Part shown: one piece after another, positions 972 through 27,495 of the stretch
How positions within the stretch are numbered: the stretch's first letter is position 1
How the letters are laid out: the number at the start of each line of letters is the position of its first letter
Assembly (NCBI GenBank): GCA_016234115.1
Contig: JACRHD010000017.1
Coordinates: 811-64,810 of the forward strand
Length of the DNA stretch: 64,000 nucleotides
DNA from: Nitrospirota bacterium
GTDB taxonomy: Bacteria; Nitrospirota; Thermodesulfovibrionia; UBA6902
Reading direction: 5' to 3'
Program-made: the position numbers and the translations under genes
Notes under the pieces: generated by a model
Databases searched by the model: none
Told to the model about the DNA's origin: nothing
Seen by the model: only the letters and a program-made list of their open reading frames with translations

Positions 972-3233
972 TCAACGCCTCAATAATTTGTCCCGATACC
1001 CGCCGTAGCCCGAAGGATCAAGCTTCGCCGCCTTATCCAATTCCTCCACAGCCTTTGCTTCATCTCCGAGATTCAAATATGCGTTTGCCAGATTAAAATG
1101 GACCCTCGCATGATCAGGGTTTATGATATTCAACAGGTTCAGGTAATGAATGACCTTCTGAAAGTCCTTCGCCTTCTGGTAGGCCTTCACGATATAGTTA
1201 AGTTCCCCTGTCTCCAAAAGAGATTTGCCGGAAGCGATATCGTCTTTTGTCGCCCCCCTGATCCTGTTTATTTCATTCAGGGCCTTCTGCGCAACGTCTT
1301 CTTTTTTCAGAAAGATCGCAGTTAGGGCCAGCTCAAACTGTTTTTGATCATTAAGAGGGTCGCGGTCCGCCATATTATTTATTATCTCGTACATCTTCCC
1401 GTATTCTTTCTTCTGCTTGTATATCTCCGCCAACGCATAATTAAGCCACTCATACCGTGGATTCATCTTCATGCACGCCCTTACAAGTGCTTCCGCTTTT
1501 GGAATAAACGCGGGGTCGTAAAGAACAAGCCGGTTATAAAACTTTATCACCTTTGTCAGGTACTCCAGGTTATGATGATGCTTCGATATCCCTCTTTCCA
1601 GCTCGACTACTGTTTCATTCACAAATTCTACGGCCCCCTCCCGGGAAAACAGTTCCTGAAGGACAATATAGTTGGAAACGGATTCCATTGCTCCCCTGAC
1701 ATCGTAGTCGCCGAATGTATTCAACCGCAGGGTCTTCCTGAAATCGCCGAGAAGGGCCGGCAGCGACTTCTCCGAGACTGTCCTGGCTATCCGGGAAATA
1801 CGGACGGACTCATTCATGGGCCTGTAATTTGCAAAATAGATAATCGCGGAAAGAACCAGCATCATGACCGGCGTCAACAGGAACGCCTTTATTCCCGTTA
1901 TCCCCGCGTCAGTCGCCGGTTGAGGTCTTGCATCGCCTCTTTCACTTCCGACAACATCGATATAAGCTAATAATGCGAAATATATAAAGTACGTATTAAT
2001 GGTATCGAAGGTAAACAGGTTCTGGACAAAGTAAACAATCAGGGCAGTTACAAGCGTTATCGACTCTTTCCCCGAAAGCAGTTTCCCGTGATATTTCTTC
2101 CGCACTATGTAAAGAGCGGTCCCCATAATCGCCATATACGAAGACAACCCGAGGACCCCGGCGTTAATCAACCATTCTATAACAATATTATGCGCGCGGT
2201 CCGTCCATACCTGCTCGCCCGTATAAGGCATCGGACTCACTGCATATATCCCGATAAAATTTTCCTGTCCCCAACCCAATACGGGCCTTTCTTTTATCCC
2301 GTTCCAGGCCATTTCCCATGAATTGAGCCGGGCCCTGACGGAGTCGTTTGAAAGCATCGAAGAAAACCTCGAAAGGGTCGCGTCTGTTTTTAATGAATAA
2401 TTCCCGCGAGAGGCAATAAAAGTAACGGCAAGGGCAACAGCACAGATAACGACAACCGACGCAACGGCGGTATTGATTAATTTCCATTTTCGCGTCTTGA
2501 CCTTCTCAATAATATAATACGCGAGCATAATCAGCAAGCCGACAACTCCCGCCAGGATCGCGCCCCTTGTGGCCGTACGGTAAATGACCGCCGTATTGAG
2601 AAGGACAAGGAAGGCGTAATAAATTTTGAGATACTTTTTCGGGGTATTGAGAAGCAGCATCAACCCTGTAAATATGGTAAGCAGTGAATAAGCGGCAAGA
2701 AACGGGGGATTGCCGATGGTCCCGTAAATCCTTCTATTATATTCCAGCCAGTGCCGCGTGCCCTCAGTTGCCGCGGGCGCGCTCAAAGAATGCAGACCGA
2801 CAAGAAAACCGACCGCCGATATTATATTAAAAAACATCAGCCAGTCTTTACGGGTCTTCAGAACGCTCCTGACTATCATAAAATATAACGCCAGATGCAA
2901 TATGGTGATATACCCTTCCATACGCTCGTAGCTTGACCAGAAGCTGTTATAAGGGTTGACCCCCAACAAGTCGGCCATGCCCGTCACAAAGGTGAACGTC
3001 AATACGGACGCTACCATCGCTGAAGCAGCAGGCCTGTATTCCTTCCTGACCGTGATGAGCCCGATCCAGAAAAAAGCCGCGACCTCAACCAGTATCCTGA
3101 AAGCGAAGTTTTTGCCGGTAATATACGGGAATACCATCGGGGCCGAAATATAAAGGGGCAGCACAGGGACCAGGAATATGAGGATTCTTGTCCCCCACTG
3201 GCAAATTTTTTCTGTTTTAAAGGAGTATGGCAT
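972..3233 (-). CDS. O-antigen ligase-like (Wzy_C family) polytopic membrane protein fused to a C-terminal TPR-repeat domain
   Basis: 753 aa. The N-terminal ~450 aa has many TM helices with a large loop, as in O-antigen ligase/polymerase. The C-terminal ~250 aa has repeated 34-residue TPR-like helices (…AKAVEELDKAAKLDP…, LNLANAYLNLGDEAKA). Confidence 0.55.
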   Translation of the reverse strand: MPYSFKTEKICQWGTRILIFLVPVLPLYISAPMVFPYITGKNFAFRILVEVAAFFWIGLITVRKEYRPAASAMVASVLTFTFVTGMADLLGVNPYNSFWSSYERMEGYITILHLALYFMIVRSVLKTRKDWLMFFNIISAVGFLVGLHSLSAPAATEGTRHWLEYNRRIYGTIGNPPFLAAYSLLTIFTGLMLLLNTPKKYLKIYYAFLVLLNTAVIYRTATRGAILAGVVGLLIMLAYYIIEKVKTRKWKLINTAVASVVVICAVALAVTFIASRGNYSLKTDATLSRFSSMLSNDSVRARLNSWEMAWNGIKERPVLGWGQENFIGIYAVSPMPYTGEQVWTDRAHNIVIEWLINAGVLGLSSYMAIMGTALYIVRKKYHGKLLSGKESITLVTALIVYFVQNLFTFDTINTYFIYFALLAYIDVVGSERGDARPQPATDAGITGIKAFLLTPVMMLVLSAIIYFANYRPMNESVRISRIARTVSEKSLPALLGDFRKTLRLNTFGDYDVRGAMESVSNYIVLQELFSREGAVEFVNETVVELERGISKHHHNLEYLTKVIKFYNRLVLYDPAFIPKAEALVRACMKMNPRYEWLNYALAEIYKQKKEYGKMYEIINNMADRDPLNDQKQFELALTAIFLKKEDVAQKALNEINRIRGATKDDIASGKSLLETGELNYIVKAYQKAKDFQKVIHYLNLLNIINPDHARVHFNLANAYLNLGDEAKAVEELDKAAKLDPSGYGGYRDKLLRR

Positions 3234-3338
3234 CGAGAAAGCTCAAGGGATCACGGCTTGAATTTGTTGACAGGCATATGGCAAAGGCAATTATTCCTCC
3301 TCACAAACCGGCAAGGGCCTGATAAACATCATAACCGC

Positions 3339-3373
3339 ACTGAGATGGAAGCCGCGAAACCGCTCCCATCTCA
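3339..3373 (-). terminator. Candidate rho-independent terminator/hairpin downstream of the small minus-strand gene at 3426-3584
   Basis: CTGAGATGG(3339-3347)…CCATCTCAG(3365-3373) forms a 9-bp outer stem with an inner GC-rich helix. On the minus strand it is followed by a moderately U-rich stretch (agugcgguuaugauguuuauc). Confidence 0.3.
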
Positions 3374-3425
3374 GGCGGTCAGGTAAGGTCCAGTTTTTCC
3401 GGGTCATATATATTAAGCTTACTGC

Positions 3426-3584
3426 TTAAAATAATGTATATATAAACGGCGCCACTGCCGAGCCCTCAGTAAAAATTATCAATGCGCCCAACAGGACGAG
3501 AAAGATTACAATAGGCATTAACCACCATTTCTTTCGTACCTTTAAAAAATCCCAGAATTCCGACATGATAGATAGTTTGCTCAT
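3426..3584 (-). CDS. Small single-TM membrane protein (DUF5989-like)
   Basis: The likely true start is the internal Met (MSKLSIMSEFWDFLKVRKKWWLMPIVIFLVLLGALIIFTEGSAVAPFIYTLF). This is a short conserved peptide of a family that recurs next to glycan-modification genes. The upstream part of the 86-aa track ORF is Arg-rich and probably not coding. Confidence 0.5.
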   Translation of the reverse strand: MSKLSIMSEFWDFLKVRKKWWLMPIVIFLVLLGALIIFTEGSAVAPFIYTLF

Positions 3585-3701
3585 TCGCCGCCTCCCTGTT
3601 CTATATTGTGATGCATAATTCCCTGTTCTTTCCGCAAATACCCTTATGCTTCCGCGCCTCGTCTCCACGGCCCCGGTCCTTCCCATGAATACGGAGCGTC
3701 T

Positions 3702-5114
3702 TCAGATAAATTTTATTTTTTTAAGGGCAAAAAAAGTCATCCTCAAAAGCAATAATCCGTGTCTGAACCGGCTTATCTGGGTCCTCCCGTAAGTCCTTTC
3801 ACGATATCTTATTGGTATCTCAACCAACTTCAGATTAAGCTTGGACGCCCCGAAGAGGAGGTCAAAATCGCCGAATGGATCAAAATCCCCGAAGTATGCT
3901 CTGTTTGCCTTTATCCTTTCATAATCTTTTTTCCAGAGCACCTTGGTGCCGCAAAGCGTGTCCCTGACGCGCTGTTCGAGGAGATAAGAAAATGCCAGGC
4001 TGAAGAATTTGTTTCCCAGCAGGTTCAGAAATCTCATCGCCTCTTTTTCCATCTGATAAACCAGTCGTGAACCGTTAATGAACTCGCCCTTCCCCGACAC
4101 GACGGCGTCAAAAAACTTGGGAAGGTCTTCCGGCGGCACGGTAAGGTCTGCGTCGAGGATCATCAGGACATCGTTTTTTGCGCGGGCAAATCCCTTTCTT
4201 ACGGCGTCCCCTTTCCCTTTGCCGTCCTGGACCAAAACGGAAATGTCTCTATGGGAATACTCTTTTCGCACCCTTTCACACTCTTCAACCGTTCCGTCTT
4301 CAGAATGGCCCTCAACAAATATGATCTCGGTATGCCTGCCCATCGCAGGCGTTCTTTTGACGGCCTGCTCGATGTTTCCTCTCTCATTCCGGCAGGGGAT
4401 GATGACCGAGCACGTCGCCTCCCCTGGCCGGACCCTGCTGCCTGCCGGCCGGGCAATTATTATTTCGTTTAAGGCAAGTTTCCGGAAGAAGGGCAGGTTT
4501 GCCACCCATTTATTGAAAAAAGACGAAACAAGGGGGATATTGACGGGCATTAAACAATGATACCTTTTTTTTATTACCTCGAAGTCGTTCAGATAAAGCA
4601 GATTGGATATATCTTCAAGAGGAAGCCAGTGCTGCAATAAACGTCTGGTCCTGAGGCCGACCGCTTCCGCGACCTTGAGCGCCGGCTCCCAGAGATAATT
4701 GTAATAAACGATGATCAGCCGGGTTTCCGGCTTGCATACTTTATGCAATCCCTTAACGGCAATCTGAATATCGTCAACATTTCCTATGGTGCCGTCAATA
4801 ACAACATAATCAAATTTTTCTTCGATCTTGAGAGATTCAAGGTCGTCTACTTCAAATTGTAAACGCGGGTTCCTCTCCCTTGCGATCTCCACCATTCGGG
4901 GACTTATGTCGATCCCCACTCCTCTGGAGGGATTCAAAGCAGCGAGGGTATCGCCTGTCCCGCAGCCTATTTCAAGAACGGATGATTGCTGAGGAATTAA
5001 AAAAAGGAGATACTTTTCGAGTTCTCTATGATAATACTCTCCCTTTTTTCTGCTTTTTTCCCTGTCCCGGGCTATGGAATTGAAAAAGGTTATTTTTTCA
5101 GTTTTTGTCAACAA
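3702..5114 (-). CDS. Bifunctional class I SAM-dependent methyltransferase / family-2 glycosyltransferase
   Basis: The N-terminal half has SAM-binding motif I (VLEIGCGTGDTL) and a Rossmann methyltransferase fold. The C-terminal half is GT2-like (SVIIPCRNERGNIEQAV…ILDADLT…), resembling DPM1/ArnC polyprenyl-phosphate sugar synthases. Confidence 0.7.
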   Translation of the reverse strand: MLTKTEKITFFNSIARDREKSRKKGEYYHRELEKYLLFLIPQQSSVLEIGCGTGDTLAALNPSRGVGIDISPRMVEIARERNPRLQFEVDDLESLKIEEKFDYVVIDGTIGNVDDIQIAVKGLHKVCKPETRLIIVYYNYLWEPALKVAEAVGLRTRRLLQHWLPLEDISNLLYLNDFEVIKKRYHCLMPVNIPLVSSFFNKWVANLPFFRKLALNEIIIARPAGSRVRPGEATCSVIIPCRNERGNIEQAVKRTPAMGRHTEIIFVEGHSEDGTVEECERVRKEYSHRDISVLVQDGKGKGDAVRKGFARAKNDVLMILDADLTVPPEDLPKFFDAVVSGKGEFINGSRLVYQMEKEAMRFLNLLGNKFFSLAFSYLLEQRVRDTLCGTKVLWKKDYERIKANRAYFGDFDPFGDFDLLFGASKLNLKLVEIPIRYRERTYGRTQISRFRHGLLLLRMTFFALKKIKFI

Positions 5115-5133
5115 GTGAGCTCCTGAAGATATT

Positions 5134-6213
5134 TCAGGGTATGGTCCTGCTACTTACATTCCTGCAATAGCTTTCATATGTTTGAACTATACCCTGCTCA
5201 AGACCGATCTTCGCTTCCCAACCCAGTTTTTTTATCTTGCTCACATCTAACAATTTCCTCGGGGCCCCCTCCGGTTTTGAAAGATCATGCCGTATTTCAC
5301 CCTCGAACCCGATAATCCTCTTTATGAGAACGGCAAGGTCTTTTATCCTGATGTCCTCTCCCGAACCGATATTCACAAAATCGCCCAACTCTTTATGTCC
5401 GTAATTCGAAATTAAAAAAATACAGGCGTCCGCAAGGTCATCGGAGTGAAGAAATTCCCTGTAAATCTCCCCTGCCCCCCACAGAAGCACATGGCCCTCC
5501 GTTATACCAAGTTTTTCCAGCGCCTTTGTCATCGACTTCTCGTCCTGAAGAATTTCTTCATTATTCATATTAAAACCCGGCGGATATATCTGCAGGTCTT
5601 TTTTTATTGCCTGATAATCCCTGTTCCTCAGAAGCTTGGCGAGATGGAATTTCCTGATAAATGCGGGGAAGACATGGGAAGTTTCAAGGTTGTAATTATC
5701 ATTGGAGCCATATAAATTGGTCGGCATGACGGAGAGGAAATTTGTTCCATACTGCTCATTGTAATACCTGCACAATTTAATCGCGGAGATCTTCGCAATC
5801 GCATATGCCTCATTCGTAGGCTCCAGGGCGCCCGTGAGAAGGAACTCCTCTTTCATAGGCTGCGGGGCGTACTTCGGATAAATACAGGACGAACCGAGAT
5901 TAAGAAGCTTCTTGACTCCATGCTTATACGCGGAGTGGATTACATTCGCCGCGATCATGATATTTTGATAAATAAAGTCGGCCTTATATGTATTATTGGC
6001 CAGTATTCCTCCGACCTTTGCGGCTGACAGAAAGACATAGTCGGGTTTCTCATTTTCAAAAAATTTTTCAGTCTCTGTCTGACGCGTAAGGTCGAGTTCG
6101 GAGTGTGCTCGGGAAACAATGTTTTCATGTCCCCGTACCCGGAGGTTTCGCATCAACGCAGACCCTACCATTCCCCTGTGTCCCGCTATGTAAGTCTTTG
6201 AAGTCGTTTCCAT
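5134..6213 (-). CDS. fcl: GDP-L-fucose synthase (GDP-4-keto-6-deoxy-D-mannose 3,5-epimerase/4-reductase)
   Basis: The N-terminus is …KTYIAGHRGMVGSALMRNL… and the SDR catalytic Y-x3-K (YAIAKISAIK) is present. It lies adjacent to gmd. It is longer than typical Fcl (359 aa) because of an internal insertion. Confidence 0.8.
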   Translation of the reverse strand: METTSKTYIAGHRGMVGSALMRNLRVRGHENIVSRAHSELDLTRQTETEKFFENEKPDYVFLSAAKVGGILANNTYKADFIYQNIMIAANVIHSAYKHGVKKLLNLGSSCIYPKYAPQPMKEEFLLTGALEPTNEAYAIAKISAIKLCRYYNEQYGTNFLSVMPTNLYGSNDNYNLETSHVFPAFIRKFHLAKLLRNRDYQAIKKDLQIYPPGFNMNNEEILQDEKSMTKALEKLGITEGHVLLWGAGEIYREFLHSDDLADACIFLISNYGHKELGDFVNIGSGEDIRIKDLAVLIKRIIGFEGEIRHDLSKPEGAPRKLLDVSKIKKLGWEAKIGLEQGIVQTYESYCRNVSSRTIP

Positions 6214-6274
6214 TATGAAGTTGGTTATTCGATAAGCGGTAGGGCCTTCGCGAAATTGAACCGTGGTCCCCGGA

Positions 6275-7411
6275 TCAGTTTGTCCAATCGATTTTCTTGT
6301 TACTTAAAATCAGCTTCCCTTCACCCGGCGTTCTGAGCCCTATGTCCTCCATATCTGAATCGACCATAATTTTTACAAGCTCGTCAAAGGTCACCCTGGG
6401 CGCCCAGCCGAGCTCTCTCCTGGCTTTTTCCGCGTCTGCAAGGAGAAAATCGACCTCCGCGGGCCTGAAATACTTCGGATCAATCCTGACCGCGCAATCG
6501 CCTGTCTTCAGGTCGGCTTTCGAGCCGGGCCCGAAAGCCTGATCCAGGGATTTTATGACGCCTGCTTCGCTCAACCCTTCTCCACGCCATTCAATTTCTA
6601 TTCCGGCATAACCAAATGCTCGTTCAACGAATTCTCTTACCGTATGGCTCTCGCTTGAACCGATTACATAGTCATCAGGCGCTTCCCTTTGCAGTATCAG
6701 CCATTGACATTCAACATATTCCGGAGTAAAACCCCAGTCTCTCGCGGCGTCAAGATTGCCGAGAAAAAGGGTCTTCTGATTGCCTGCAATCATATTTGCC
6801 ACCGCCCTTGTAATCTTTCTGGTAACAAAGGTCTCTCCTCTCCTCGGTGATTCGTGATTGAAAAGGATTCCATTGCAGGCAAAGATGTTATATCCTTCTC
6901 TGTAATTGACGGCCATCCAGTAAGCATATACTTTTGCCGCCGCGTACGGGCTTCTCGGATGGAAGCCTGTTCGCTCGCTTTGAGGAGGCGGGGCGGAGCC
7001 GAACATTTCCGAAGAAGACGCCTGATAAAATCTGGTCTTTATTCCGCTTATTCTTATCGCTTCAAGAAGTCTCGTAGTTCCGAGGGCCGTTATATCACCC
7101 GTATATTCAGGCATGTCGAAACTCACCCTTACATGGCTTTGAGCTCCGAGATGATATACTTCATCAGGCTGAATATTATATATGATATTTGTGAGCTGCC
7201 CGGCGTCGGAGAGATCGCCGTAGTGCAAAAGAAGCTTGACACCCGATATATGAGGGTCTCTGTAAAGATGATTTATTCTCTTGGTATTAAATGTACTCGC
7301 CCTCCTGATAAGCCCGTGAACTTCGTAGCCCTTAGACAGAAGCAGCTCCGAAAGATATGAGCCGTCCTGGCCGGTAATTCCGGTAATTAAAGCTTTTTTG
7401 GTCATTGACAT
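6275..7411 (-). CDS. gmd: GDP-mannose 4,6-dehydratase
   Basis: [46 protein letters not shown] is the canonical Gmd N-terminus. It carries the SDR catalytic triad and sits next to fcl. Confidence 0.9.
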
Positions 7412-7487
7412 ATATTATCGCAAGGCGGTTAAATTCTTCAAATAACAGACTTGACGGAATCAGGACAATCCGGTAATTCCGGAAGGG

Positions 7488-9389
7488 TCAACTGTCGTGA
7501 AATCTGTATATGTATATGGAATTTTCATCCAGATAATACCTCGCGACCTCCACAAGTTCCTTTTCCCGGGTATTTTTCAGGTATTCAGCTATGTTGAGAC
7601 TGGGACTGATTTCTTCAATGTATGCCGAATTATAAGGGAACATAATATATGATACGTCATGTTCCCTGCAAAATGCCTTCAATCTGTCCGGGGTAGAAAC
7701 ATTATCGATCTCATACCAGAAACTGATAATCCTGTTCTTGTCGATTCCATACTTGATCCGGTAAAAATCGGATGACATAATACGCAGGGTCAATATTTTT
7801 TCTCCTTCCTTTACATTTTCCTTGACCCATTTCATTGCCTCATCACTGGGAAAGTACTTAAGCTTTATAAATTCGAGAGACGACAGGAATTGCGCCTTCA
7901 GAGTCGGGACCGTACAAATACTTATCAGGCAAACAGATAAAATCATATAACTTACCTTAAATGAATGACGCCATTTGATTTTTTCGATAATACTGCTTAA
8001 AAACAGCGATAAATATACGGCCATTGACGGATAATAAGTCATTGCAAGTCGAGGGCTGTAGTTGGCTATATCCAGGGCCAGAAAAAAATAGTACGCTATA
8101 AAATAAAACCCGAAATAAAGTGACAGCGTGTCCCTTTTAAAAATAAGAAGATACGCGACCGAAAACAAAAACATGACGAAAAGGACCCATGAGATATCCT
8201 GGGGTATTTGCAGAAAGAAGGAAAATACCTTTCCCTCAAAAGGTTTAAAATTCGACCAGATTATTTCATAATTTCTCCAATTATAGAATTTACCTATTAT
8301 CATCCAGGGTATTATAGGCGCCAGGGACATCAACATCACTTTAAAGTGATTTATAATATTCAAATTCCGGTTTGCTATGTCTCTGACAATCAGATAACCG
8401 CTGCAGATAAAAAACATTAATAAAATTTCCGGCCTGTACATAAATCCTGTGCCTATAAAGAAAGAGGTCAAAAACAGGTCTCTATTATCTTCCAGCTTGA
8501 TGAATCGCAGGAAATGGAAGGAAATCAGGGTCGCAAAAAAAAGGGTCCCGCAACTGATCTCAGCCAACTGAGCATAGGCAAACGAGACCGGTAAGAATAA
8601 AAATATTGTCGCCCCTGCCAGCGCCGCTTCCCTGTTGCTGAATAACAGAATCGTCCGGTACAGATAAACTGCGCTGAAAATATAAAACAGTAATTGAATG
8701 ATTCTCGGACCTACATGCGTAAAGCCGAAAGCAGAGTAAGCAATATGATAAAGAAGTTTAATAAGATGGGGATACCGGATGAATTCCGGATAATACGTTA
8801 TATTTCTTAACAATAGAAAATATGCAACAGATGATAATAACAACAAGAAGATAAAACGACGTCTCAATGGGCCTTTCGTTGTTAATTCTGATATATAGTC
8901 ACACCTCTCTGAAGAAGAAACATCCGGTTTCCTGAACTGCCGGATTAACAAAACCAGAACGGCCGGCGACCAGAATGCAATTTGAAAAAATACATGCCAC
9001 GCGCTGTCGATATGCTCATAAATCCATAAACCGCTGGTCAGGTGCAGGGCTTCATCACCGATTATTAAAATGGGCAGGAATAAGGGATAAATATGGAGAA
9101 CCAACGCCAGACAACAGACCATCAGGAACCACACGTGGGTCCTGATCCCCGTCATAATGTCTCGCAGAGGGACAACGGCAGCCGTACCGACCGGGAGGGC
9201 GTCAAACCAGCGACCCATCAGATAAGCAGCTGCGGAAAAATATACTATCAGTCCGAAGAACACAACCGCCCTGGCGGCAACAGAAATTGGAAGCGCCCAT
9301 GTGGGAAAAATCAAATAAAAAAGAATCCAGGGGAGGGTAAAAAGAAATTTGTATTGGTGAATAGTGTTCTTCTTTGAAGTATCAACCAT
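7488..9389 (-). CDS. Large polytopic membrane protein, GT-C-fold glycosyltransferase-like (GT39/GT83/ArnT-PMT-like)
   Basis: 633 aa. About 12 predicted TM helices in the N-terminal two-thirds are followed by a ~150-aa soluble C-terminal domain, the architecture of polyprenyl-P-sugar-dependent GT-C enzymes. No specific family could be assigned by eye. Confidence 0.5.
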   Translation of the reverse strand: MVDTSKKNTIHQYKFLFTLPWILFYLIFPTWALPISVAARAVVFFGLIVYFSAAAYLMGRWFDALPVGTAAVVPLRDIMTGIRTHVWFLMVCCLALVLHIYPLFLPILIIGDEALHLTSGLWIYEHIDSAWHVFFQIAFWSPAVLVLLIRQFRKPDVSSSERCDYISELTTKGPLRRRFIFLLLLSSVAYFLLLRNITYYPEFIRYPHLIKLLYHIAYSAFGFTHVGPRIIQLLFYIFSAVYLYRTILLFSNREAALAGATIFLFLPVSFAYAQLAEISCGTLFFATLISFHFLRFIKLEDNRDLFLTSFFIGTGFMYRPEILLMFFICSGYLIVRDIANRNLNIINHFKVMLMSLAPIIPWMIIGKFYNWRNYEIIWSNFKPFEGKVFSFFLQIPQDISWVLFVMFLFSVAYLLIFKRDTLSLYFGFYFIAYYFFLALDIANYSPRLAMTYYPSMAVYLSLFLSSIIEKIKWRHSFKVSYMILSVCLISICTVPTLKAQFLSSLEFIKLKYFPSDEAMKWVKENVKEGEKILTLRIMSSDFYRIKYGIDKNRIISFWYEIDNVSTPDRLKAFCREHDVSYIMFPYNSAYIEEISPSLNIAEYLKNTREKELVEVARYYLDENSIYIYRFHDS

Positions 9390-9592
9390 ATGTTATTGAT
9401 CTTAATCGTAAGTGAATATAAAGTATACCTTAATTTCATGTTAAATTTCAAAATATTATGTTTGATCTATTATCACGGGACCGTTAAGAGGAAAAACCCT
9501 TGTTCCCCCCAAAAACCCATTTGACTTACTGATCATAAATTTGTTAATTTACTGTTTATTTGAAATATAATAAATTTGCCGAGGTTAATTGT

Positions 9593-10141: not shown

Positions 10142-10474
10142 GGATATGAAGCAGATTAGGCGGATTTCTCAATTTTCACTGCGCCTGTCTGTTTCAGGTG
10201 ATTAGTATTAACAGCTTTACCGGCAATTTTACCGTGGTTATCAGCTTCCATATGGGCGCCGTTATTTATTGAATTCTATAATCCAGCCTGTCGTTCAACA
10301 CTCATCCTCTCGCCGCCGGGCCTTATACCGGATCTCCCGAAAACGCCTTAAGAGGGCGAGGGTCATAAAGAGTATGACGATAAGGAGCGGCGCCGGAAGA
10401 AGACATTTTGTGACGTGGTCTTTAATTTTTATCCGGCGGATAGTATATTATATAACGATATAATGCGACGTGAC

Positions 10475-10551
10475 GCCACCGTAGCTCAACCTGGCAGAGC
10501 AATGCATTCGTAATGCATAGGTTAGGGGTTCGACTCCCCTCGGTGGCTCCA
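10475..10551 (+). tRNA. tRNA-Thr (anticodon CGU)
   Basis: Acceptor stem GCCACCG/CGGTGGC. Anticodon stem ATGCA/TGCAT with loop TTCGTAA, anticodon CGT. T-arm GGGGTTCGACTCCCC. Genomically encoded CCA at 10549-10551. Confidence 0.85.
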
Positions 10552-10557
10552 GCGATC

Positions 10558-12264: not shown

Positions 12265-12440
12265 TTGTGATCAGTTAGAGATTTATAGATATTTTACCCA
12301 ATGTTTGCATATATTTAAAGTCCGTCACGGCTTCCCCCTCATTAACATCCGCTTTTAACAAGTCTGCCCCGATGTCGCATAATCCGGCGAGGCCTTGCGG
12401 GTAACCTTGCGGATGGTTGAATATTATTGTTAATATTAAT

Positions 12441-20496: not shown

Positions 20497-21996
20497 TCAA
20501 GTTTCATTGTATTTTGCAATCAAAAGACGCCAGGGAATATCGTGATTGCTGATCGATTTCCAGATATAGACGATAAGCGCAACCAGCAATAAAAAATGGC
20601 GTCCGATATAAAGCCCATTGTAATCTAATAATAAATAGCCGACAGTCACTATTACGATAAATATAACGTCGAATTGCAACCCTTTTGCCAGGGTTATAAT
20701 CGACAGCCTCTTATGAATAATAAAAATACAAATTATATCTACCATGGAAAGGCAGAATGCCGTAGCCGAGGCGGCGCCTATCATTCCATATCGCGGCACC
20801 AATAATATATTCAGGATAATATTCAATGTCCCCCAGAATATATTAACCTTCATATAGACTTTGTGCTGGCCGGTCATTTGCAATAAAATACCGATCAAAC
20901 CGGAGCATGCTTTTATCATTTGCCCCATTATAAGAATCAGGAGCGCGGCATAGCCTGCCGCAAATTCAGGGCCGTAGAAATATTTCAGGATATATTTGCC
21001 CTCTATGGCAAGTATCAGAATGACCGGCATCGACATGCTCAAAATCCAGCGTGTGCTCTCACGGACGACCTTTTTTAATTCAGCATGGTCCCCGGAGGTA
21101 TGTATGGTTGATATCAGGGAAGGGATGACGGCGGTAAAGGCCATCATGGGAAAGTACACGAGAAGGACAAGTTTTGCCGCCACTCCGTATATCCCGACGA
21201 TTTCAGTGGATTTGTACATACCCAGTATCCATACATCGGCCTGGGTATAGAGCAGCACGCTCATGCTTGTAAATATTATTGTGTATGCCACGTCTATGAC
21301 TTTCCGCTTTTCACACTGTCCTCTGACCGGTCTTAATGAAGCTGTTCTTTTCCGGAGGAATCTGATTGAAACAATTACAGAAATGATTTCGCCGGCAGCA
21401 AAGGCAATGACCGCGTAACCGGGAGATGTCCCCTTAAGGGACAAGAGCAGAAAAACCACTATCTTGAAGGAGGGCGAAATTAATGATTCCGAAATCAGGG
21501 CCCTGAATGCATCTTTATATCCCCTCAATATTCCCCCGATCACGTCCCTTATTACCCATGCGGGGATTGCCAGGACCGCGACCGGCAACAACTTCAGCAG
21601 CCCCTCGGAGTGAAATATATTGACAGAAATGAACTTCGAGCAGGCCAGGACAAGGAGCATAAAAATTATCGAAACGAGGAAACAAAACCTGATGACAAAG
21701 GAAATAGTCCCCTTTAACCTTTCCCGATCATTCAGATCAGCATAAATGGGTATAAACTTCATCATGGTCTCTTCCATACCGAATTTTGCAAGCTGAACGG
21801 ATATTCTTATGACCGTCACGGCGAGTATGACTTCACCTATCCCGCCTGCGCCCAAAATCCGCGCAAGGAGGACCTGATTAAAAAACCCAAGGAGCGTATT
21901 GGATATCTTCAGGGCAAAGGCTATTGCCCCGCTCCTTGCTCCGACCGCTAAGTTATCATTCATACCGTCATGAATATCCGGGCCGTTATCAGCCAT
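20497..21996 (-). CDS. Wzx-like polysaccharide flippase (MOP/MATE superfamily, polysaccharide biosynthesis protein)
   Basis: 499 aa with ~12-14 TM helices. The N-terminal region …ISNTLLGFFNQVLLARILGAGGIGEV… is typical of the Wzx/RfbX family. Confidence 0.65.
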   Translation of the reverse strand: MADNGPDIHDGMNDNLAVGARSGAIAFALKISNTLLGFFNQVLLARILGAGGIGEVILAVTVIRISVQLAKFGMEETMMKFIPIYADLNDRERLKGTISFVIRFCFLVSIIFMLLVLACSKFISVNIFHSEGLLKLLPVAVLAIPAWVIRDVIGGILRGYKDAFRALISESLISPSFKIVVFLLLSLKGTSPGYAVIAFAAGEIISVIVSIRFLRKRTASLRPVRGQCEKRKVIDVAYTIIFTSMSVLLYTQADVWILGMYKSTEIVGIYGVAAKLVLLVYFPMMAFTAVIPSLISTIHTSGDHAELKKVVRESTRWILSMSMPVILILAIEGKYILKYFYGPEFAAGYAALLILIMGQMIKACSGLIGILLQMTGQHKVYMKVNIFWGTLNIILNILLVPRYGMIGAASATAFCLSMVDIICIFIIHKRLSIITLAKGLQFDVIFIVIVTVGYLLLDYNGLYIGRHFLLLVALIVYIWKSISNHDIPWRLLIAKYNET

Positions 21997-22187: not shown

Positions 22188-22760
22188 CTAATGAATCGCT
22201 GCTATTTGTCCGCACAGATATTGCATCAACATATGAACCACTATCATGTGCATGTCTTCAACTTTTTGCATGTCGTTGACGGCGGCGACAAAAGGTATAT
22301 CCGCGATTTGCGACAATTTGCCGCCGTCAAAGCCGCTTAATCCGACAGTTTTTGCGCCCTTTTCTTTTGCGTAAGAAACCGCCATAAGTACATTCTTGGA
22401 ATTGCCGCTGCCGGAAATGCCGATAACTACATCACCTGGCCGAATAAAATTCTTGAGTTGTTCGACAAAGATATTATCATAGGAAACATCATTTGCATAA
22501 GCCAGAATCGTGGGGACATTATCGTTCAGACAAATGACCCTGAACTTGCGTTCAAGTTCGGAACAAGTCCCCTTGTTTATATCACACGCAAAATGGGACG
22601 CCGTGGAGCCGCTTCCCCCGTTGCCCATAATGAAAACCTGTTTATTATCATGGTATGCGGATAACATGGTCCGCCCGATTTCTTCAAACCGGTCATGCGG
22701 GAACATATCAAACAATATTTTTAATCGACTAAGGTACTCAAGGCTGAATTCCGGCTTCAT
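22188..22760 (-). CDS. gmhA: D-sedoheptulose-7-phosphate isomerase (SIS domain)
   Basis: Contains the SIS-domain motif …IMGNGGSGSTASHFACD… and …VVIGISGSGNSKNV… diagnostic of GmhA/phosphoheptose isomerase. It is 190 aa. Confidence 0.8.
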   Translation of the reverse strand: MKPEFSLEYLSRLKILFDMFPHDRFEEIGRTMLSAYHDNKQVFIMGNGGSGSTASHFACDINKGTCSELERKFRVICLNDNVPTILAYANDVSYDNIFVEQLKNFIRPGDVVIGISGSGNSKNVLMAVSYAKEKGAKTVGLSGFDGGKLSQIADIPFVAAVNDMQKVEDMHMIVVHMLMQYLCGQIAAIH

Positions 22761-22833
22761 TTTTCGGCTCCTTGACAGTTTGCGGGTTATTTAATGTTTG
22801 TAATGATCAGGCAGCGCATTTTTTTGAAATATG

Positions 22834-23823
22834 CTACTTGATTGAATAACTCCTTACATTGAAAATTATCCTGCTTCCGAAAGAATCCAGCATAAAAGGC
22901 AACTCCCTATACTCTTTGAGAGAAGACCTGACCGCATCCTGTTTATTTTTGGGGACATATAACAGCAGGAACCCTCCGCCCCCCGCCCCGCAGAGTTTGC
23001 CGCCGAGCGCTCCGGTAGTCATTGCCTTTTCATACATTGCATCGATCACTGGATTAGAAACGGTATTGACCAAAGTCTTTTTCAAAAGCCAATTTTCGTG
23101 CAGCAGCCTGCCCAGCCTGTCAAATTTGCCCTGGGTCAGGAAATCCTCCAGTTTTGGAACAAGAGCGCTCATTCTCTTCAAGCTGTCTCGTTTATTTTCA
23201 GTATTCTGTTTCTGTTTCCTGAGTATTTTGTCGGCCTTCCTTGTCTTGTTCGTATAAAACAACAGGAGTCTTGACCCTAATATCAGAAGGTTGCTGTCAA
23301 AAACAGGGACCTTCGAAACGGTGACGGATTCATCGGGATGAAAAATGATTTTATTGAGGCCGCCGTATGCCGCTATATACTGGTCCTGCTTGCCTATCGG
23401 TTTTTTGCAGATATCAATTTCTATCTCGCAGGCTTCTCTTGCAATCCGCTCCGACGTCACCGGCATTCCCGCATAATTATACAAGGCGTTTAACAACCCG
23501 ACGGTAACGCTGCTTGAAGAGCCGAGTCCCGATCCTTCAGAAGGGACGTCAGCCAGAGTGGTTATCTCAACTCCGCTCTTTATACCGACTTTTCGCATGG
23601 CTGCGCGGACCAGCTCATGTCTTATCTCTGAAACATCATCAACAATTTCTTTTATGCTGTAATTGATATATATCTTTTCATCAAATCTTCCCTTAACTAT
23701 CACGTAAACATATTTGTCTATTGCGGAACTGAGAACCATTCCATCTTCCCTGCGATAAAAGGACTTCAAATCAGTCCCTCCGCCTACAAAAGATATCCGT
23801 AATGGGGTCTGAGAAATTACCAC
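22834..23823 (-). CDS. hddA: GHMP-family sugar kinase, D-glycero-alpha-D-manno-heptose-7-phosphate kinase-like
   Basis: GHMP motifs ISFVGGGTDL and PSEGSGLGSSSSVTVGLLNAL. It sits immediately between gmhA and a sugar-1-P nucleotidyltransferase, the gene order of GDP-heptose clusters. Confidence 0.7.
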   Translation of the reverse strand: MVISQTPLRISFVGGGTDLKSFYRREDGMVLSSAIDKYVYVIVKGRFDEKIYINYSIKEIVDDVSEIRHELVRAAMRKVGIKSGVEITTLADVPSEGSGLGSSSSVTVGLLNALYNYAGMPVTSERIAREACEIEIDICKKPIGKQDQYIAAYGGLNKIIFHPDESVTVSKVPVFDSNLLILGSRLLLFYTNKTRKADKILRKQKQNTENKRDSLKRMSALVPKLEDFLTQGKFDRLGRLLHENWLLKKTLVNTVSNPVIDAMYEKAMTTGALGGKLCGAGGGGFLLLYVPKNKQDAVRSSLKEYRELPFMLDSFGSRIIFNVRSYSIK

Positions 23824-23838
23824 GTTGTCCCTTTCTTT

Positions 23839-24567
23839 TTATCCGTGAAAACAACCATTATGAGCGCGATGAAATATTTCATCCTTAACGTCCTTTTCGG
23901 CCTTATTAAATTTGTCCGGGGTCCCGATATCCAGCAAATAATCATCAATAACGTAACCTGCCGCTTTTCCGGCAATATGGGGAAGCACGTTATGACCGAG
24001 ATCAAATATTTCCCTGTCGGGCCACAGGTCCTTAAGGCCCTGCCCGCTGATCATGATCCCGGCAAATGCGAGGTCCGATACGGGGTTTGCGGGTTTTTCG
24101 ACAAAGGAAACAACAGTCGCAGATTCATCTGTCTCAACAATCCCGCATTCGCGGGGGGTCGGCGTCTTAAATAAAGCCAGGGTATAATCCTTGCCGCATT
24201 GCGCGTGGAATCGAAACATCTTCCTCAAATTTATGTTGGTCAGATTGTCCGCGTACAGAATAAAAAACGAATCCTCTCCTTTAACAAAGTCCCAGTTTTT
24301 TTTTATCGTCCCGCCGCTTCCCATAAGGGTAGGTTCATATGTAAGCCTGATCCTGAGCCCCCGGGAATGACTGTTCACATAATCCTTCACTTTTCCGGCA
24401 AGATGTGAAGTATTGATCAGGATTTCATTTATTCCATGAAGCTCAAAAAGATCGAACCAATATTCAAGTAACGGCCGTCCGTTGATTGATACAAGACATT
24501 TCGGCGTATGCAGCGTCAACGGCTTAAGCCGCGTGCCTTCTCCGGCAGCAAGCAGGAAGGCCTTCAT
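23839..24567 (-). CDS. hddC: Sugar-1-phosphate nucleotidyltransferase, D-glycero-alpha-D-manno-heptose-1-phosphate guanylyltransferase-like
   Basis: The N-terminus MKAFLLAAGEGTRLKPLT is the nucleotidyltransferase G-x-G-T-R motif. It is 242 aa. Its start overlaps the next gene's stop. Confidence 0.7.
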   Translation of the reverse strand: MKAFLLAAGEGTRLKPLTLHTPKCLVSINGRPLLEYWFDLFELHGINEILINTSHLAGKVKDYVNSHSRGLRIRLTYEPTLMGSGGTIKKNWDFVKGEDSFFILYADNLTNINLRKMFRFHAQCGKDYTLALFKTPTPRECGIVETDESATVVSFVEKPANPVSDLAFAGIMISGQGLKDLWPDREIFDLGHNVLPHIAGKAAGYVIDDYLLDIGTPDKFNKAEKDVKDEIFHRAHNGCFHG

Positions 24568-25676
24568 TTCTTAATGGCCCTCACTACCCCCATATTCTTC
24601 ATTGTCTTCTCCGCATAATCAAGAATATCTTCGATATCGGTTTGCCTGTTAAGATATTTCCAATATTCCTCTATACTGTTTTCAATAGAATATTCAGGTT
24701 GCCAGCCAAGGGATTTGAGTTTGCCGATATCCGACAATATATGCCTCGTGTCCCCATAACGGTAAAATTCGGAAACGACGGGAGCTATATGCCTTCCTGT
24801 CACATTCTGCACCTTTTCGTAAAAATCCAGGACCGTACAGGCCTTTCCGCCCCCGACATTAAATCCCTGATAATTCGCCCTGTCATCTTCCAGGACTTTT
24901 ATATTGGCGTTTACCACATCGTGATAATTCACATAGTCCCTGACTTGCATGCCGTCTTCATAGATGGTCGGCTGTTTATTAAAATAAAGATGCAGTGCAA
25001 ATATTCTCATGGCCCCGGAATAGGCATTATAAAAGGATTGGCGGGGTCCCTGAACAATGGAATAACGCATGGCAACAGAAGGGATGCCGTATCTTTTCCC
25101 CAGATTAATAGCGATTATTTCCTGCGAATGTTTTGACATCGCATATTGGTTCTGGGGATTGATCTTATCTTCCGGAGTCGGCAGGTATTGCACGTACTTT
25201 CCGCAAAACGGGCAGTGATGCTCCCAGTCCCCTTTTGAAAGCTGTTCCTCCAGGCGGATATCGGGTATCATTTGTCCGTGGTCCTGACATCTGTATAATC
25301 CTTCCCCCAAAACAGCCTGGGAAGACGCCACAACAACTTTTTTAATGGGCAGCTTTTTCTCGACGATTATTTCATAAATAAGGGCCGTGCTGACACTGTT
25401 GACATGAAAATACGTGCTGAAATCCGGGAGGTAATCCTGATACGCGGCCAGATGAAAGATCGCGTCAATTCCCTTCATTGATTTCTCCAGGGTCGCTTTG
25501 TCCCTCACATCTCCGACAATAAATTCCGCCTTTGAAGGGATATAATCAGGTTTGCCTTTCATGTGAACAGGCTTCTGAAGATTATCAAGTATCCGCACAC
25601 TGTATCCTTTTTCAAGCAATCTGTCTACGGTGTGTGATCCTATAAATCCGGCGCCCCCCGTGACTAATACGCGCAC
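24564..25676 (-). CDS. NAD-dependent epimerase/dehydratase (extended SDR) with a Cys/His zinc-ribbon-like insertion
   Basis: MRVLVTGGAGFIGSHTVDRLL (GxxGxxG) and the catalytic YxxxK (YAMSKHSQE). A ~40-aa insertion is present (…CQDHGQ…HHCPFCGKYVQY…) that is absent from canonical GalE/RmlB-type enzymes. Confidence 0.7.
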   Translation of the reverse strand: MRVLVTGGAGFIGSHTVDRLLEKGYSVRILDNLQKPVHMKGKPDYIPSKAEFIVGDVRDKATLEKSMKGIDAIFHLAAYQDYLPDFSTYFHVNSVSTALIYEIIVEKKLPIKKVVVASSQAVLGEGLYRCQDHGQMIPDIRLEEQLSKGDWEHHCPFCGKYVQYLPTPEDKINPQNQYAMSKHSQEIIAINLGKRYGIPSVAMRYSIVQGPRQSFYNAYSGAMRIFALHLYFNKQPTIYEDGMQVRDYVNYHDVVNANIKVLEDDRANYQGFNVGGGKACTVLDFYEKVQNVTGRHIAPVVSEFYRYGDTRHILSDIGKLKSLGWQPEYSIENSIEEYWKYLNRQTDIEDILDYAEKTMKNMGVVRAIKK

Positions 25677-25747
25677 TTTCCTCCCTTATTACAGTTCTGA
25701 AATAAGTTGTTTGTATTTCTCAAAATTATCAAAGAGCACAAAAAGTA

Positions 25748-26728
25748 TCAGTCCGGATAGCCATGATGGTTTCTTGAATGCCAATCCCATGCAGTCCGCA
25801 CAATTTGCCTGATCTCGGGATACCTCGGCTTAAGCCCCAGAAGTGAACGGGTGCGTTCAGAAGAAGCGACGAGAACCGCGGGGTCTCCGGACCGGCGATC
25901 AGCTTCTCTTGCCGGTATGGGATGACCGGTAATCTCACGGGCGGCCTCAATAACTTCCTTTACGGAATACCCTTCCCCGTTGCCGAGGTTGAGTTTCTGC
26001 GGCCCGATGTCATCCATTCGCCGAAGAGCTTCAATATGCGCCATGGCAAGATCTTCAACATGTATATAATCACGGATGCATGTCCCGTCTCTCGTGTCGT
26101 AATTGTTTCCGTAAATGTCCACATGGTCCCTTTGCCCTAATGCGGTCTGTAAAACTATAGGAATCAGATGTGTCTCAATACGATGGTGTTCCCCATGTTC
26201 GACTGTGGCTCCTGCCGCGTTAAAATAGCGTAAGCAGACATAGTTCAGACCATGCGCCTTATGATACCAGTCAAGCATCTGTTCGAACATAAGCTTGGAC
26301 CTGCCATAAGCATTTATCGGGTTGGTAGGATGTTTCTCATCAATAGGGGTGTATTCAGGATTGCCGAAGAGAGCGGCTGTCGACGAAAAAATAATACGCT
26401 TAACATTGGATTCTCTCATGGCCTCAAGTAATTCCAGCCCCTTGGATACATTGCCGAGAAAGTAATCTTGAGGATGTGACATGGATTTCGATACCAGCGT
26501 TTCGCCGGCCATGTGAATTACGGCGTCTATCTGATTACTGCCGAGTATTTTCCTGACATAATCCCTCGTTCCGATATCAGCTTCAAAAAAAGGAATATCC
26601 GCCGGGATGGCGGACCTGTGGCCTTCGACGATATTATCTATTACAGACACAGAGAATCTTTCTTTAAGCAGCATTTCCACGACAACACTTCCCACGTAAC
26701 CGGCGCCGCCGGTGACTAACACCTTCAT
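25748..26728 (-). CDS. galE: UDP-glucose 4-epimerase
   Basis: MKVLVTGGAGYVGSVVVEML and SSTAALFG, with Y-x3-K (YGRSKLMFE). Length is 326 aa. Confidence 0.8.
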   Translation of the reverse strand: MKVLVTGGAGYVGSVVVEMLLKERFSVSVIDNIVEGHRSAIPADIPFFEADIGTRDYVRKILGSNQIDAVIHMAGETLVSKSMSHPQDYFLGNVSKGLELLEAMRESNVKRIIFSSTAALFGNPEYTPIDEKHPTNPINAYGRSKLMFEQMLDWYHKAHGLNYVCLRYFNAAGATVEHGEHHRIETHLIPIVLQTALGQRDHVDIYGNNYDTRDGTCIRDYIHVEDLAMAHIEALRRMDDIGPQKLNLGNGEGYSVKEVIEAAREITGHPIPAREADRRSGDPAVLVASSERTRSLLGLKPRYPEIRQIVRTAWDWHSRNHHGYPD

Positions 26729-27495
26729 GTCTTTTCTCCCGCCGCATTCAAGTTGTTATGATACCTCAAACGGTAAAGTCCTCGTAAATCGTCATACGCA
26801 TCTTTAAATATTTTGGCCTTTGTGTCCGGGTCTTCAAGCCAGGTCACAGGTATTTCCTTAATCTTGTAGCCTTTCCTTTCAGCGTAAAAAAGGAACTCGG
26901 TATCAAAAAACCATTCGTTATCCTCAATGTAAGACAATAGTTTCTGAACTACCTCGCGGCGTCCGGTCTTAAACCCGCAGTGGGCATCATGAAAGTGGGT
27001 CCCAAGAGCCAACTTTATTACCGCGTTATAGCTCCGTGATACGAATTCACGCTTCAGGCATCTTGTGGTGTTTGAATTTCTTGACAGCCTGTTGCCTACC
27101 ACGATATCAGCCCCTTCGTTAAGGAGGTCCACAGCGCGTATTAATGCGTCTAACGATGTGGAAAGATCAATGTCCATGTAACTTACGAAATCGCAATCAG
27201 TCTGTTCCCACGCAGTCCGGAGGGCGATGCCGCGCCCCTTTCGGGGGATGTAAAGATATTTCATGATCGGTATTTCCGACTCTATTGCACGACCTATCTC
27301 TCCTGTGCGGTCTTTGGAATTATTGTCGGCGATAACGATCTTCCACTCATACCTTTCATATTCACGTAAAAAAGCCGTAAGCGTCAGAACGCTTTGACGC
27401 AGCACTTTTTCTTCATTATAAACGGGAAGCACGATTAAGGCGGAGGGCCTCTTTTTCATATGATTCCGAATCTTCAGGTTTCCTGTGCCAGTCAT
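26725..27495 (-). CDS. Family-2 glycosyltransferase (DPM1/ArnC-like polyprenyl-phosphate sugar synthase type)
   Basis: LIVLPVYNEEKVL…IADNNSKDRT…DIDLS motifs are typical of dolichol-P-mannose/undecaprenyl-P-sugar synthases. It is 256 aa with no TM anchor. Confidence 0.75.
   Translation of the reverse strand: MTGTGNLKIRNHMKKRPSALIVLPVYNEEKVLRQSVLTLTAFLREYERYEWKIVIADNNSKDRTGEIGRAIESEIPIMKYLYIPRKGRGIALRTAWEQTDCDFVSYMDIDLSTSLDALIRAVDLLNEGADIVVGNRLSRNSNTTRCLKREFVSRSYNAVIKLALGTHFHDAHCGFKTGRREVVQKLLSYIEDNEWFFDTEFLFYAERKGYKIKEIPVTWLEDPDTKAKIFKDAYDDLRGLYRLRYHNNLNAAGEKT

Follow-up and report, generated by a model that had tools for sequence, protein, structure and literature searches.

Probable gene sets for three-component extracytoplasmic glycosylation at one end of an exosortase-associated glycan locus of an uncultured Nitrospirota bacterium

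Introduction

We analysed a 64-kb stretch of DNA (called the window) from the metagenome-assembled genome of an uncultured Nitrospirota bacterium and found that its positions 972-27495 probably hold several gene sets for three-component extracytoplasmic glycosylation, which lie at one end of an exosortase-associated glycan locus of the Wzx/Wzy type. The mechanism would be of an established kind, of which the locus is an uncharacterised example, and not a new one. Three-component glycosylation sets the surface chemistry of many bacteria. To our knowledge, the cases studied so far come almost all from pathogens and contain one GT-C enzyme, and we know of no characterised three-component system with tightly linked radical SAM and dehydrogenase genes. 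In the established scheme a GT2 enzyme loads polyprenyl phosphate, a flippase exports the product and a GT-C enzyme performs the transfer outside; such systems occur widely among Gram-negative bacteria, and elaborate forms that employ multiple GT-C enzymes, as well as MATE-type flippases, have been described (PMC11127046). New here are a particular conserved combination of genes, which includes radical SAM enzymes and a stand-alone UPF0104 protein, and several large unannotated protein families.

An earlier note made from the letters of the window had read the same span as one periplasmic-face glycosylation module with an unusual concentration of five GT-C paralogs, served by two DPM1/ArnC-like GT2 enzymes with flippases alongside. 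The open reading frames (ORFs) it named were all recovered with their coordinates and strands. Its core idea, i.e. that the GT2 enzymes feed GT-C enzymes at the outer face, agrees with all classification tests run and with the gene neighbourhoods found elsewhere, except for the protein at 972-3233, which belongs to a family with another donor type.

Results

Four membrane proteins of the GT-C_A type

Four proteins of the span, denoted by the letters C (7488-9389, minus strand, 633 amino acids), D (10558-12264, minus strand, 568 amino acids), E (15806-17326, plus strand, 506 amino acids) and G (18808-20472, minus strand, 554 amino acids), are glycosyltransferases of the ArnT/PMT/STT3 type (GT-C_A) by family match or predicted fold. 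C and G match the Pfam family PMT_2 with 44.9 bits (E 1.9e-11) and 53.5 bits (E 4.1e-14), respectively, at a gathering score of 26.1 bits. D and E, to which the proteins HZA16_04035 and HZA16_04055 are respectively 100% identical, matched nothing when searched directly against Pfam and NCBIfam, and their assignment to a distinct ArnT-like family (D) and a distinct family (E) comes from homologs and structure models. Each of the two families is sharply defined and highly conserved, with more than 100 clusters at 46-73% identity. With matches counted at E <= 0.01, PMT_2 was recovered by 23 of 54 D homologs and 22 of 55 E homologs (about 40% each), and a few E homologs matched STT3, PMT or DUF2079.

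AlphaFold models computed from the family alignments had a predicted local distance difference test score of 90.9 for D and 88.6 for E and a predicted template modelling score of 0.90, and showed about 12 long helices with an alpha/beta domain after them. When the models were compared with the PDB in Foldseek, 25 out of 25 matches at E <= 0.001 were GT-C enzymes for D and likewise for E. The top match was ArnT (5f15, E 4.8e-8, probability 1.00, TM-score about 0.52) for D and AglB (3waj, E 8.1e-7) for E. Significant matches to ArnT, STT3/PglB/AglB, ALG9 and DPY19 were common to both models, those to ALG12, AftB and GPI mannosyltransferase I were found for D alone, and weaker fold matches of the two models included AftB, AftA, AftD, Emb and PimE. 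At the sequence level, C, D and G had no match in phmmer searches against PDB sequences, and the matches of E did not exceed chance level.

GT-C_A enzymes have about 11-13 transmembrane helices and in most cases a soluble domain outside the cytoplasm; hydropathy profiles of C, D, E and G showed about 9-16 hydrophobic segments and a soluble C-terminal tail. The region directly after the first transmembrane helix, which in the ArnT, PglB and PMT structures is the site of the GT-C_A catalytic residues, contains invariant acidic residues in three of the proteins: D38 in 54 sequences of the D family, E37, D39 and D49 in 55 sequences of the E family, and D35 and D41 of G in the three sequences compared. 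Positive-inside charge counts predict that these loops face the outside.

The four proteins are not the product of local duplication, since they have no detectable similarity to one another: in an all-against-all BLASTP comparison the pairwise E-values were at least 0.04, and hhalign of the D and E family profiles, against each other and against G or C, gave no significant similarity. We therefore rejected a locally duplicated battery of paralogs, and by sequence comparison C, D, E and G appear to represent four separate GT-C families. The concentration of such genes had also been called unusual, which is overstated because related loci repeatedly contain two or three GT-C genes in a stretch of 10-20 kb, and GT-C batteries are not foreign to Gram-negative loci, in which systems with multiple GT-C enzymes are known (PMC11127046, PMC7663294).

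The fifth membrane protein, counted among the GT-C-like proteins by the earlier note, differs from these four. Encoded at 972-3233 (minus strand), it has about 10 hydrophobic segments, a Pfam Wzy_C match at residues 209-366 (E 1.6e-20, 73.9 bits versus a cut-off of 31.7) and TPR families at residues 680-742, and by these matches it is a member of the O-antigen ligase/polymerase superfamily (GT-C_B type) and not an ArnT/PMT-type GT-C. The Wzy_C profile covers the catalytic loop region of proteins with about 10-12 transmembrane helices. It is also matched by 35754-37151 and 49399-50985, and the long TPR tail sets 972-3233 apart from Wzy/WaaL proteins in general. Wzy/WaaL-type enzymes are now classed as GT-C_B or in related clans and use polyprenyl-diphosphate oligosaccharides as donors (PMC10920833); the predicted function of 972-3233 is therefore independent of DPM1-type GT2 enzymes.

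Two DPM1/ArnC-like GT2 enzymes

Two GT2 enzymes look like polyprenyl-phosphate sugar synthases and are candidates for the first component. One, at 3702-5114 (minus strand), is a fusion of a class I SAM methyltransferase and a GT2 (Pfam Methyltransf_25 and Glycos_transf_2; called MT-GT2 for simplicity), and the other is a DPM1/ArnC/PpgS-like protein of 256 amino acids at 26725-27495 (minus strand). In line with the type proposed from the letters, the best solved-structure matches of both are DPMS and ArnC: DPMS (5mlz, 1.4e-15) and ArnC for MT-GT2, and DPMS (5mlz, 6.7e-12), ArnC (5.4e-10) and GtrB (4.2e-5) for 26725-27495. The best NCBIfam matches, all under cut-off, were AglJ (6.3e-31), Dol-P-hexose transferase and ArnC for MT-GT2, and Dol-P-hexose transferase (4.8e-17), ArnC, AglJ and PpgS for 26725-27495; both are relatives, and not members, of the named polyprenyl-phosphate transferase families. 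The sequences contain a DAD (3702-5114) and a DID motif (26725-27495). Neither protein has a transmembrane helix or a QxxRW motif, so that they are not processive synthases and this reading was rejected; the membrane proteins described above, for their part, did not classify as transporters.

Polyprenyl-phosphate GT2 enzymes are anchored either by C-terminal transmembrane helices (GtrB, ArnC, archaeal DPMS) or by a small partner protein (human DPM1/DPM3, GacI/GacJ). A DUF5989 protein of 52 amino acids with a single transmembrane helix (3426-3584, minus strand; Pfam PF19451, E 7.3e-26), which the earlier note had overlooked, is encoded between MT-GT2 and the Wzy_C-TPR protein, and the pairing of MT-GT2 and DUF5989 is kept in the related loci L052, L053 and L054. 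From this arrangement, DUF5989 may be the membrane partner of MT-GT2. A small single-helix partner gene was not found for 26725-27495, which has an 80% identical ortholog about 9 kb away from D in L011.

The MT-GT2 family is very uniform (469 amino acids; 75-81% identity among the best 120 clusters; at least 8000 relatives at E < 1e-20), which together with a housekeeping setting in L054 suggests a core rather than a strain-variable function. In L052 MT-GT2 is accompanied by DUF5989, gmd (77% identity), fcl (69% identity), a carbamoyltransferase, SxtJ and, downstream of the MT-GT2/DUF5989 pair, a 755-amino acid ortholog of 972-3233 (43% identity); the carbamoyltransferase and the SxtJ-like gene sit between MT-GT2 and DUF5989 there.

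Two candidate flippases

For the second component there are two candidates of different type. The protein at 14588-15544 (minus strand) belongs to the UPF0104/LPG_synthase_TM family, i.e. the family of the MprF flippase domain (Pfam E 2e-22), as the earlier note had recognised; its only NCBIfam match is the generic flippase-like model TIGR00374 (2.8e-7, under cut-off). Its family membership makes it a candidate for the flipping of lipid-linked sugars. In an archaeal neighbourhood with GT2 and PMT/STT3-like genes, UPF0104 was the predicted flippase (PMC5898192), and the LPG_synthase_TM/UPF0104 family has more generally been proposed to translocate lipids (bioRxiv 10.1101/2022.03.11.483950). The second candidate, at 20497-21996 (minus strand), is a flippase of the MOP superfamily (Wzx/MATE-like; Pfam Polysacc_synt, MatE and MurJ), in line with its first annotation as Wzx. 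In the Citrobacter system a MATE-type flippase fills the role for lipid-linked monosaccharides (PMC11127046).

A conserved set of eight genes

All window proteins were mapped onto 55 loci around homologs (labelled L001 onward). A set of eight genes is conserved among these related metagenome contigs: three for GT-C proteins (D, G and E) and those for the UPF0104 protein, the MOP flippase, a radical SAM enzyme with a SPASM domain, a GFO/IDH/MocA sugar dehydrogenase (called GFO) and a B12-binding radical SAM enzyme. In L039 all eight lie within 13 kb, in the order D, SPASM enzyme, GFO, UPF0104, G, MOP flippase, E and B12 enzyme, with 50-81% identity. Parts of the set recur more widely: orthologs of the SPASM enzyme (76-82% identity) adjoin D in L007, L009, L011 and L039, those of GFO (65-67%) are present in L009, L011 and L039, and an ortholog of the B12 enzyme (58-89%) lies just downstream of E, in convergent orientation, in 12 loci. 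UPF0104 adjoins D or E orthologs in five loci (L005, L008, L039, L044 and L049), MOP flippase orthologs (51-53% identity) adjoin E or G in L023, L029, L035 and L039, and G orthologs were found in L005 (57%) and L039 (50%). At least eight loci (L003, L009, L012, L032, L033, L035, L044 and L048) have a gene for a small DPM1-like GT2 immediately next to a D or E ortholog, and the linkage of synthase, flippase and GT-C components is kept in L005, L039, L044 and others. Genes for C-like GT-C proteins are found again close to E in L025 and L032-L034, and in L025 orthologs of the exosortase (67%) and of EpsI (51%) come after the pair of E and the B12 enzyme. Around D, E and G in the related loci, the GT4, Wzy and second Wzx genes known from the window are for the most part missing.

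Contigs assigned by binning to the archaea Candidatus Nitrosotenuis and Nitrosocaldus (L006 and other loci; proteins P0099, P0101, P0216 and P0222) also carry close homologs of D and E (54-56% identity) with the B12 radical SAM neighbour, which reflects either mis-binning or transfer between domains.

Organisation of the span

The genes are arranged in more than one unit. A left-hand run on the minus strand comprises, in order, C, gmd, fcl, MT-GT2, DUF5989 and the Wzy_C-TPR gene. A second minus-strand run extends from 27495 down to 17342 with intergenic gaps of at most 192 bases and contains the genes for GT2, GalE, an SDR enzyme, a nucleotidyltransferase, a GHMP kinase, a SIS isomerase, the MOP flippase, G and the B12 radical SAM enzyme; judged by its annotations it would be, on paper, a full three-component set. 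Between the two runs lie D (minus strand), the SPASM radical SAM enzyme and GFO (plus strand), UPF0104 (minus strand) and E (plus strand). The span is not one unit because a gene for a DksA/TraR-type zinc-finger regulator (9593-10141, plus strand; Pfam DksA_N 2.2e-19, zf-dskA_traR 1.3e-11) and a tRNA-Thr (CGT) gene (10475-10551, plus strand; ARAGORN, Rfam tRNA 67.3 bits) interrupt it between the left-hand run and the remainder, and the single module of the earlier note is thereby divided.

Sugar-nucleotide and tailoring enzymes

The left-hand run encodes a GDP-mannose 4,6-dehydratase (gmd, 6275-7411, minus strand; Pfam GDP_Man_Dehyd E 1.7e-141) and a GDP-L-fucose synthase-like protein (fcl, 5134-6213, minus strand; NF047922 E 7.9e-135, 449 bits versus a cut-off of 500), so that the GDP-fucose genes named previously are supported by both matches. 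The fcl-like protein, with 359 amino acids versus 308 model positions, matches the model in two stretches, which suggests an insertion of about 45 residues. In the second run, a SIS isomerase, a GHMP kinase and a nucleotidyltransferase (22188-24567, minus strand) carry the corresponding Pfam domains and match GmhA (1.4e-35), HddA (2.3e-48) and HddC (1.4e-24), all under the cut-offs; the nucleotidyltransferase scores higher against mannose-1-P guanylyltransferase, and a GmhB-type phosphatase did not turn up among the ORFs scanned. Of the GDP-heptose module proposed earlier, the three enzyme types are thus present, and from the domain content they probably form a sugar activation module of the nucleoside diphosphate (NDP)-heptose type. 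The run further encodes a UDP-glucose 4-epimerase GalE of 326 amino acids (25748-26728, minus strand; TIGR01179, 391 bits versus a cut-off of 262) and an SDR-family sugar-nucleotide enzyme of 370 amino acids with generic SDR matches only (24564-25676, minus strand).

The SPASM enzyme (12513-13622, plus strand; Pfam Radical_SAM and SPASM) is divergently paired with D, and its end overlaps the start of the gene for the NAD-dependent dehydrogenase GFO (13619-14569, plus strand; Pfam GFO_IDH_MocA), whose best NCBIfam match is UDP-GlcNAc 3-dehydrogenase (3.7e-33, under cut-off). The B12-binding radical SAM enzyme (17342-18739, minus strand; Pfam B12-binding and Radical_SAM) is convergently paired with E and has generic class B matches only (BchE, HpnJ, ApyD and AprD4). 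By analogy, the presence of these genes suggests sugar tailoring, possibly while the sugars are lipid-linked; epimerases are known to act on lipid-linked pentoses (PMC11127046).

An analogy to hopanoid HpnI/J/K/L genes, which likewise combine a GT2, a UPF0104 protein and a B12 radical SAM enzyme, was considered and set aside, with the B12 enzyme scoring 157 bits versus the HpnJ cut-off of 578 and the UPF0104 protein matching only the generic TIGR00374. Altogether the locus contains five radical SAM enzymes (12513-13622, 17342-18739, 31214-32218, 33392-34429 and 34579-35661), four of the SPASM/twitch type and one B12-binding; that at 34579-35661 weakly matches many families, the tetraether lipid synthase Tes being one of them.

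Discussion

Proposed sequence of events and relation to known systems

From the family and fold assignments and the conserved neighbourhoods observed here we infer donors, flipping and tailoring as follows. Cytoplasmic enzymes would make GDP-fucose (gmd/fcl), UDP-galactose (GalE) and a heptose-type NDP-sugar, and the two DPM1/ArnC-like GT2 enzymes would load single sugars onto polyprenyl phosphate, MT-GT2 maybe anchored by DUF5989. The methyltransferase domain, the GFO dehydrogenase and the two radical SAM enzymes may tailor the lipid-linked sugars, which would be carried across the membrane by the UPF0104 protein and/or the MOP flippase and attached to envelope acceptors by the four GT-C_A enzymes at the periplasmic face. 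Candidate acceptors are the polysaccharide of the locus itself, a conserved position of lipopolysaccharide (LPS) or lipid A, and exosortase-sorted proteins. The Wzy_C-TPR protein at 972-3233 would be a separate enzyme type that polymerises or ligates diphosphate-linked oligosaccharides.

The closest parallels are the GtrA/GtrB/Gtr* systems of Shigella and Salmonella and the O-antigen pentofuranose system of Citrobacter youngae, in which synthase, flippase and GT-C are likewise encoded together. As in C. youngae a MATE/MOP-type flippase adjoins a GT-C, as in other three-component systems the genes lie within a Wzx/Wzy-type glycan locus, and accessory enzymes may tailor lipid-linked donors in the manner of the epimerases in that work (PMC11127046). 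In contrast to these systems, four unrelated GT-C families are found here rather than one, the GT2 enzymes have no transmembrane anchors, an additional UPF0104 candidate is present, and the conserved companions comprise two radical SAM enzymes and a GFO dehydrogenase. A triad of an AglD-like GT2, UPF0104 and a PMT/STT3-like protein has been predicted in archaea by comparative genomics (PMC5898192); the same three protein families share one neighbourhood here, but in a bacterial locus, with a stand-alone UPF0104 protein that is not fused to GT2 and with linkage to an exosortase exopolysaccharide (EPS) locus and to radical SAM enzymes.

In ArnC/ArnT and in the rhizobial system of RgtE with the galacturonosyl transferases RgtA-D/F, in which several GT-C enzymes of a Gram-negative bacterium share one donor (PMC7663294), a DPM1-like GT2 makes the polyprenyl-phosphate sugar used by ArnT-fold GT-C enzymes, and ArnT is the best fold match of D. 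Unlike in ArnC/ArnT, there is no sequence-level ArnT similarity, no ArnA/B/D set in the window, and the locus is of the EPS rather than the lipid A kind. The mycobacterial Emb/Aft/PimE enzymes and the protein O-mannosyltransferases share the GT-C_A fold and lipid-phosphate sugar donors, but are distant structural relatives only, and the decaprenyl-phosphoribose genes (DPPRS, DprE1/E2) are not in the window.

Points against three-component glycosylation and alternative explanations

Several observations weigh against three-component glycosylation. Both GT2 enzymes score far under every curated polyprenyl-phosphate transferase cut-off (e.g. AglJ 107.8 versus 325 and ArnC 53.2 versus 529), and hydropathy finds no transmembrane helix in either of them, unlike in the membrane-anchored GtrB, ArnC and DPMS. 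The MT-GT2/DUF5989 pair occurs in L052 and L054 without a GT-C gene within 8 kb and with the Wzy_C-TPR protein instead, so that its product may not feed a GT-C; the link between MT-GT2 and protein C is weak. In C, the GDE motif (D112/E113) is common to the closest relatives and not conserved in those with 30-37% identity. Finally, operon structure was deduced from gene orientation and spacing: scans for promoters and terminators gave counts within about one standard deviation of those in shuffled sequences, with no site marking an operon boundary, except for the promoter-like count in 900-15900, which was about three standard deviations above the shuffles.

The first two of these points would be expected if the association were positional, i.e. 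if the GT2 enzymes were ordinary cytoplasmic repeat-unit glycosyltransferases of the Wzx/Wzy pathway and the proteins with GT-C fold had unrelated polymerase-like, ligase-like or non-catalytic roles. The occurrence of MT-GT2 apart from GT-C genes fits this as well, and the many other glycosyltransferases, three Wzy_C proteins and two MOP flippases of the locus mean that a complex repeat unit is expected anyway. We nevertheless consider a purely positional association very unlikely, given that many independent loci pair a DPM1-like GT2 with D or E, that it is specifically polyprenyl-phosphate transferases which both GT2 enzymes match best among solved structures, and that the GT-C catalytic position is occupied by invariant acidic residues.

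Two further alternatives concern the acceptor. As the earlier note had suggested, the GT-C enzymes could modify surface proteins in the way of protein O-mannosyltransferases, with exosortase-sorted (PEP-CTERM-type) proteins or others as targets, a prospect raised by the PMT_2 matches, the few E homologs that also match PMT or STT3, the many oligosaccharyltransferases among the top fold matches and the linkage to exosortase genes both here and in L025, as well as to a MORN protein in L005. PMT_2, however, also includes modifiers of lipid A and glycans such as ArnT, the top fold match of D; the acceptor cannot be read from fold similarity, and the 64-kb window contained no PEP-CTERM-like ORF in two motif scans and no S-layer gene. 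A protein acceptor thus seems unlikely to us. We also give a small, though real, chance to a conserved modification of lipid A or LPS core in the manner of ArnT or the rhizobial Rgt enzymes, as opposed to decoration of a variable polysaccharide. Across many contigs, identities of 50-89% are kept by D, E, G and the genes that accompany them, while the GT4, Wzy and Wzx genes around them in the locus mostly do not go along, which fits a conserved acceptor better than a variable one. D has Arn-like neighbours elsewhere (DegT aminotransferase, SDR enzymes and polysaccharide deacetylase) and an EptA-like sulfatase-domain protein nearby, similar to that at 47231-49234 in the window; for lipid A and core there are precedents of several GT-C enzymes that draw on a single lipid donor (PMC7663294), and the ArnT match of D again points in this direction. 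In the window, however, the genes are part of an EPS-type locus that has a priming transferase, Wza and Wzz of its own. Genes for lipid A biosynthesis are not found nearby, and C, D, E and G have no sequence-level similarity to ArnT.

Three-component glycosylation by several gene sets therefore remains the reading we prefer. A bolder proposal, which we regard as quite improbable, is that the eight-gene set constitutes a new extracytoplasmic pathway in which the radical SAM enzymes remodel polyprenyl-phosphate sugars, for which C-methylation, deoxygenation or ring rearrangement may serve as examples, before the GT-C enzymes transfer them to a conserved envelope acceptor, possibly exosortase-sorted proteins.

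Compared with the systems from pathogens, the locus and the set that it has in common with many environmental Nitrospirota contigs represent a richer version, with four unrelated GT-C families and two candidate flippase types. If the radical SAM enzymes do act on lipid-linked sugars, known glycan-tailoring chemistry would be extended, and functions would be assigned to large conserved unannotated families, i.e. D, E, the MT-GT2/DUF5989 pair and the stand-alone UPF0104 protein. At present, the analysis provides a well-founded annotation together with testable hypotheses.

Surrounding genes and further observations

The glycan locus occupies 972-58135 (57 kb), with the studied span as its left edge, and is bordered by a carB fragment (41-931) and trpF (58303-58935). 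In addition to the genes described above it holds four GT4 enzymes, a second MOP flippase (45613, in addition to that at 20497), a Wza-type export protein, a priming phosphoglycosyl transferase, a beta-barrel protein and a Wzz-like protein whose score is just under the Pfam cut-off; the three Wzy_C proteins start at 972, 35754 and 49399.

Divergent from the operon that begins with the GT2 gene at 27495, a group on the plus strand (27858-32218) encodes an exosortase, a MORN-repeat protein, a methyltransferase, EpsI and a SPASM/twitch radical SAM enzyme. The exosortase (27858-28676) reaches 138 bits in TIGR02602 (cut-off 105.6) and EpsI (30552-31214) scores 47.6 in EpsI_fam (cut-off 42.8). Both score between the XrtB and XrtV subtype models and under both cut-offs, so that the exosortase subtype may be undescribed. 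The MORN-repeat protein (28673-29335, 9.7e-38), encoded between exosortase and methyltransferase, has an N-terminal transmembrane helix, and a MORN protein is also found near the E and G orthologs in L005.

The Rfam scan found nothing besides the tRNA. The DksA/TraR protein has an N-terminal extension rich in lysine and alanine, and the strong AT skew at 8001-10000 may stem from its A-rich coding stretch. An ORF of 178 amino acids at 9556-10092 (minus strand) was considered as a small membrane protein and rejected because it is antisense to the DksA/TraR gene and without any family match; it is most likely spurious. Further to the right, the minus strand encodes a 713-amino acid glycosyl hydrolase-like protein of the F510_1955 family (38518-40659) and a 667-amino acid sulfatase/EptA-like membrane protein (47231-49234); sulfatase-domain proteins also flank the D and E orthologs in L001, L003 and L005.

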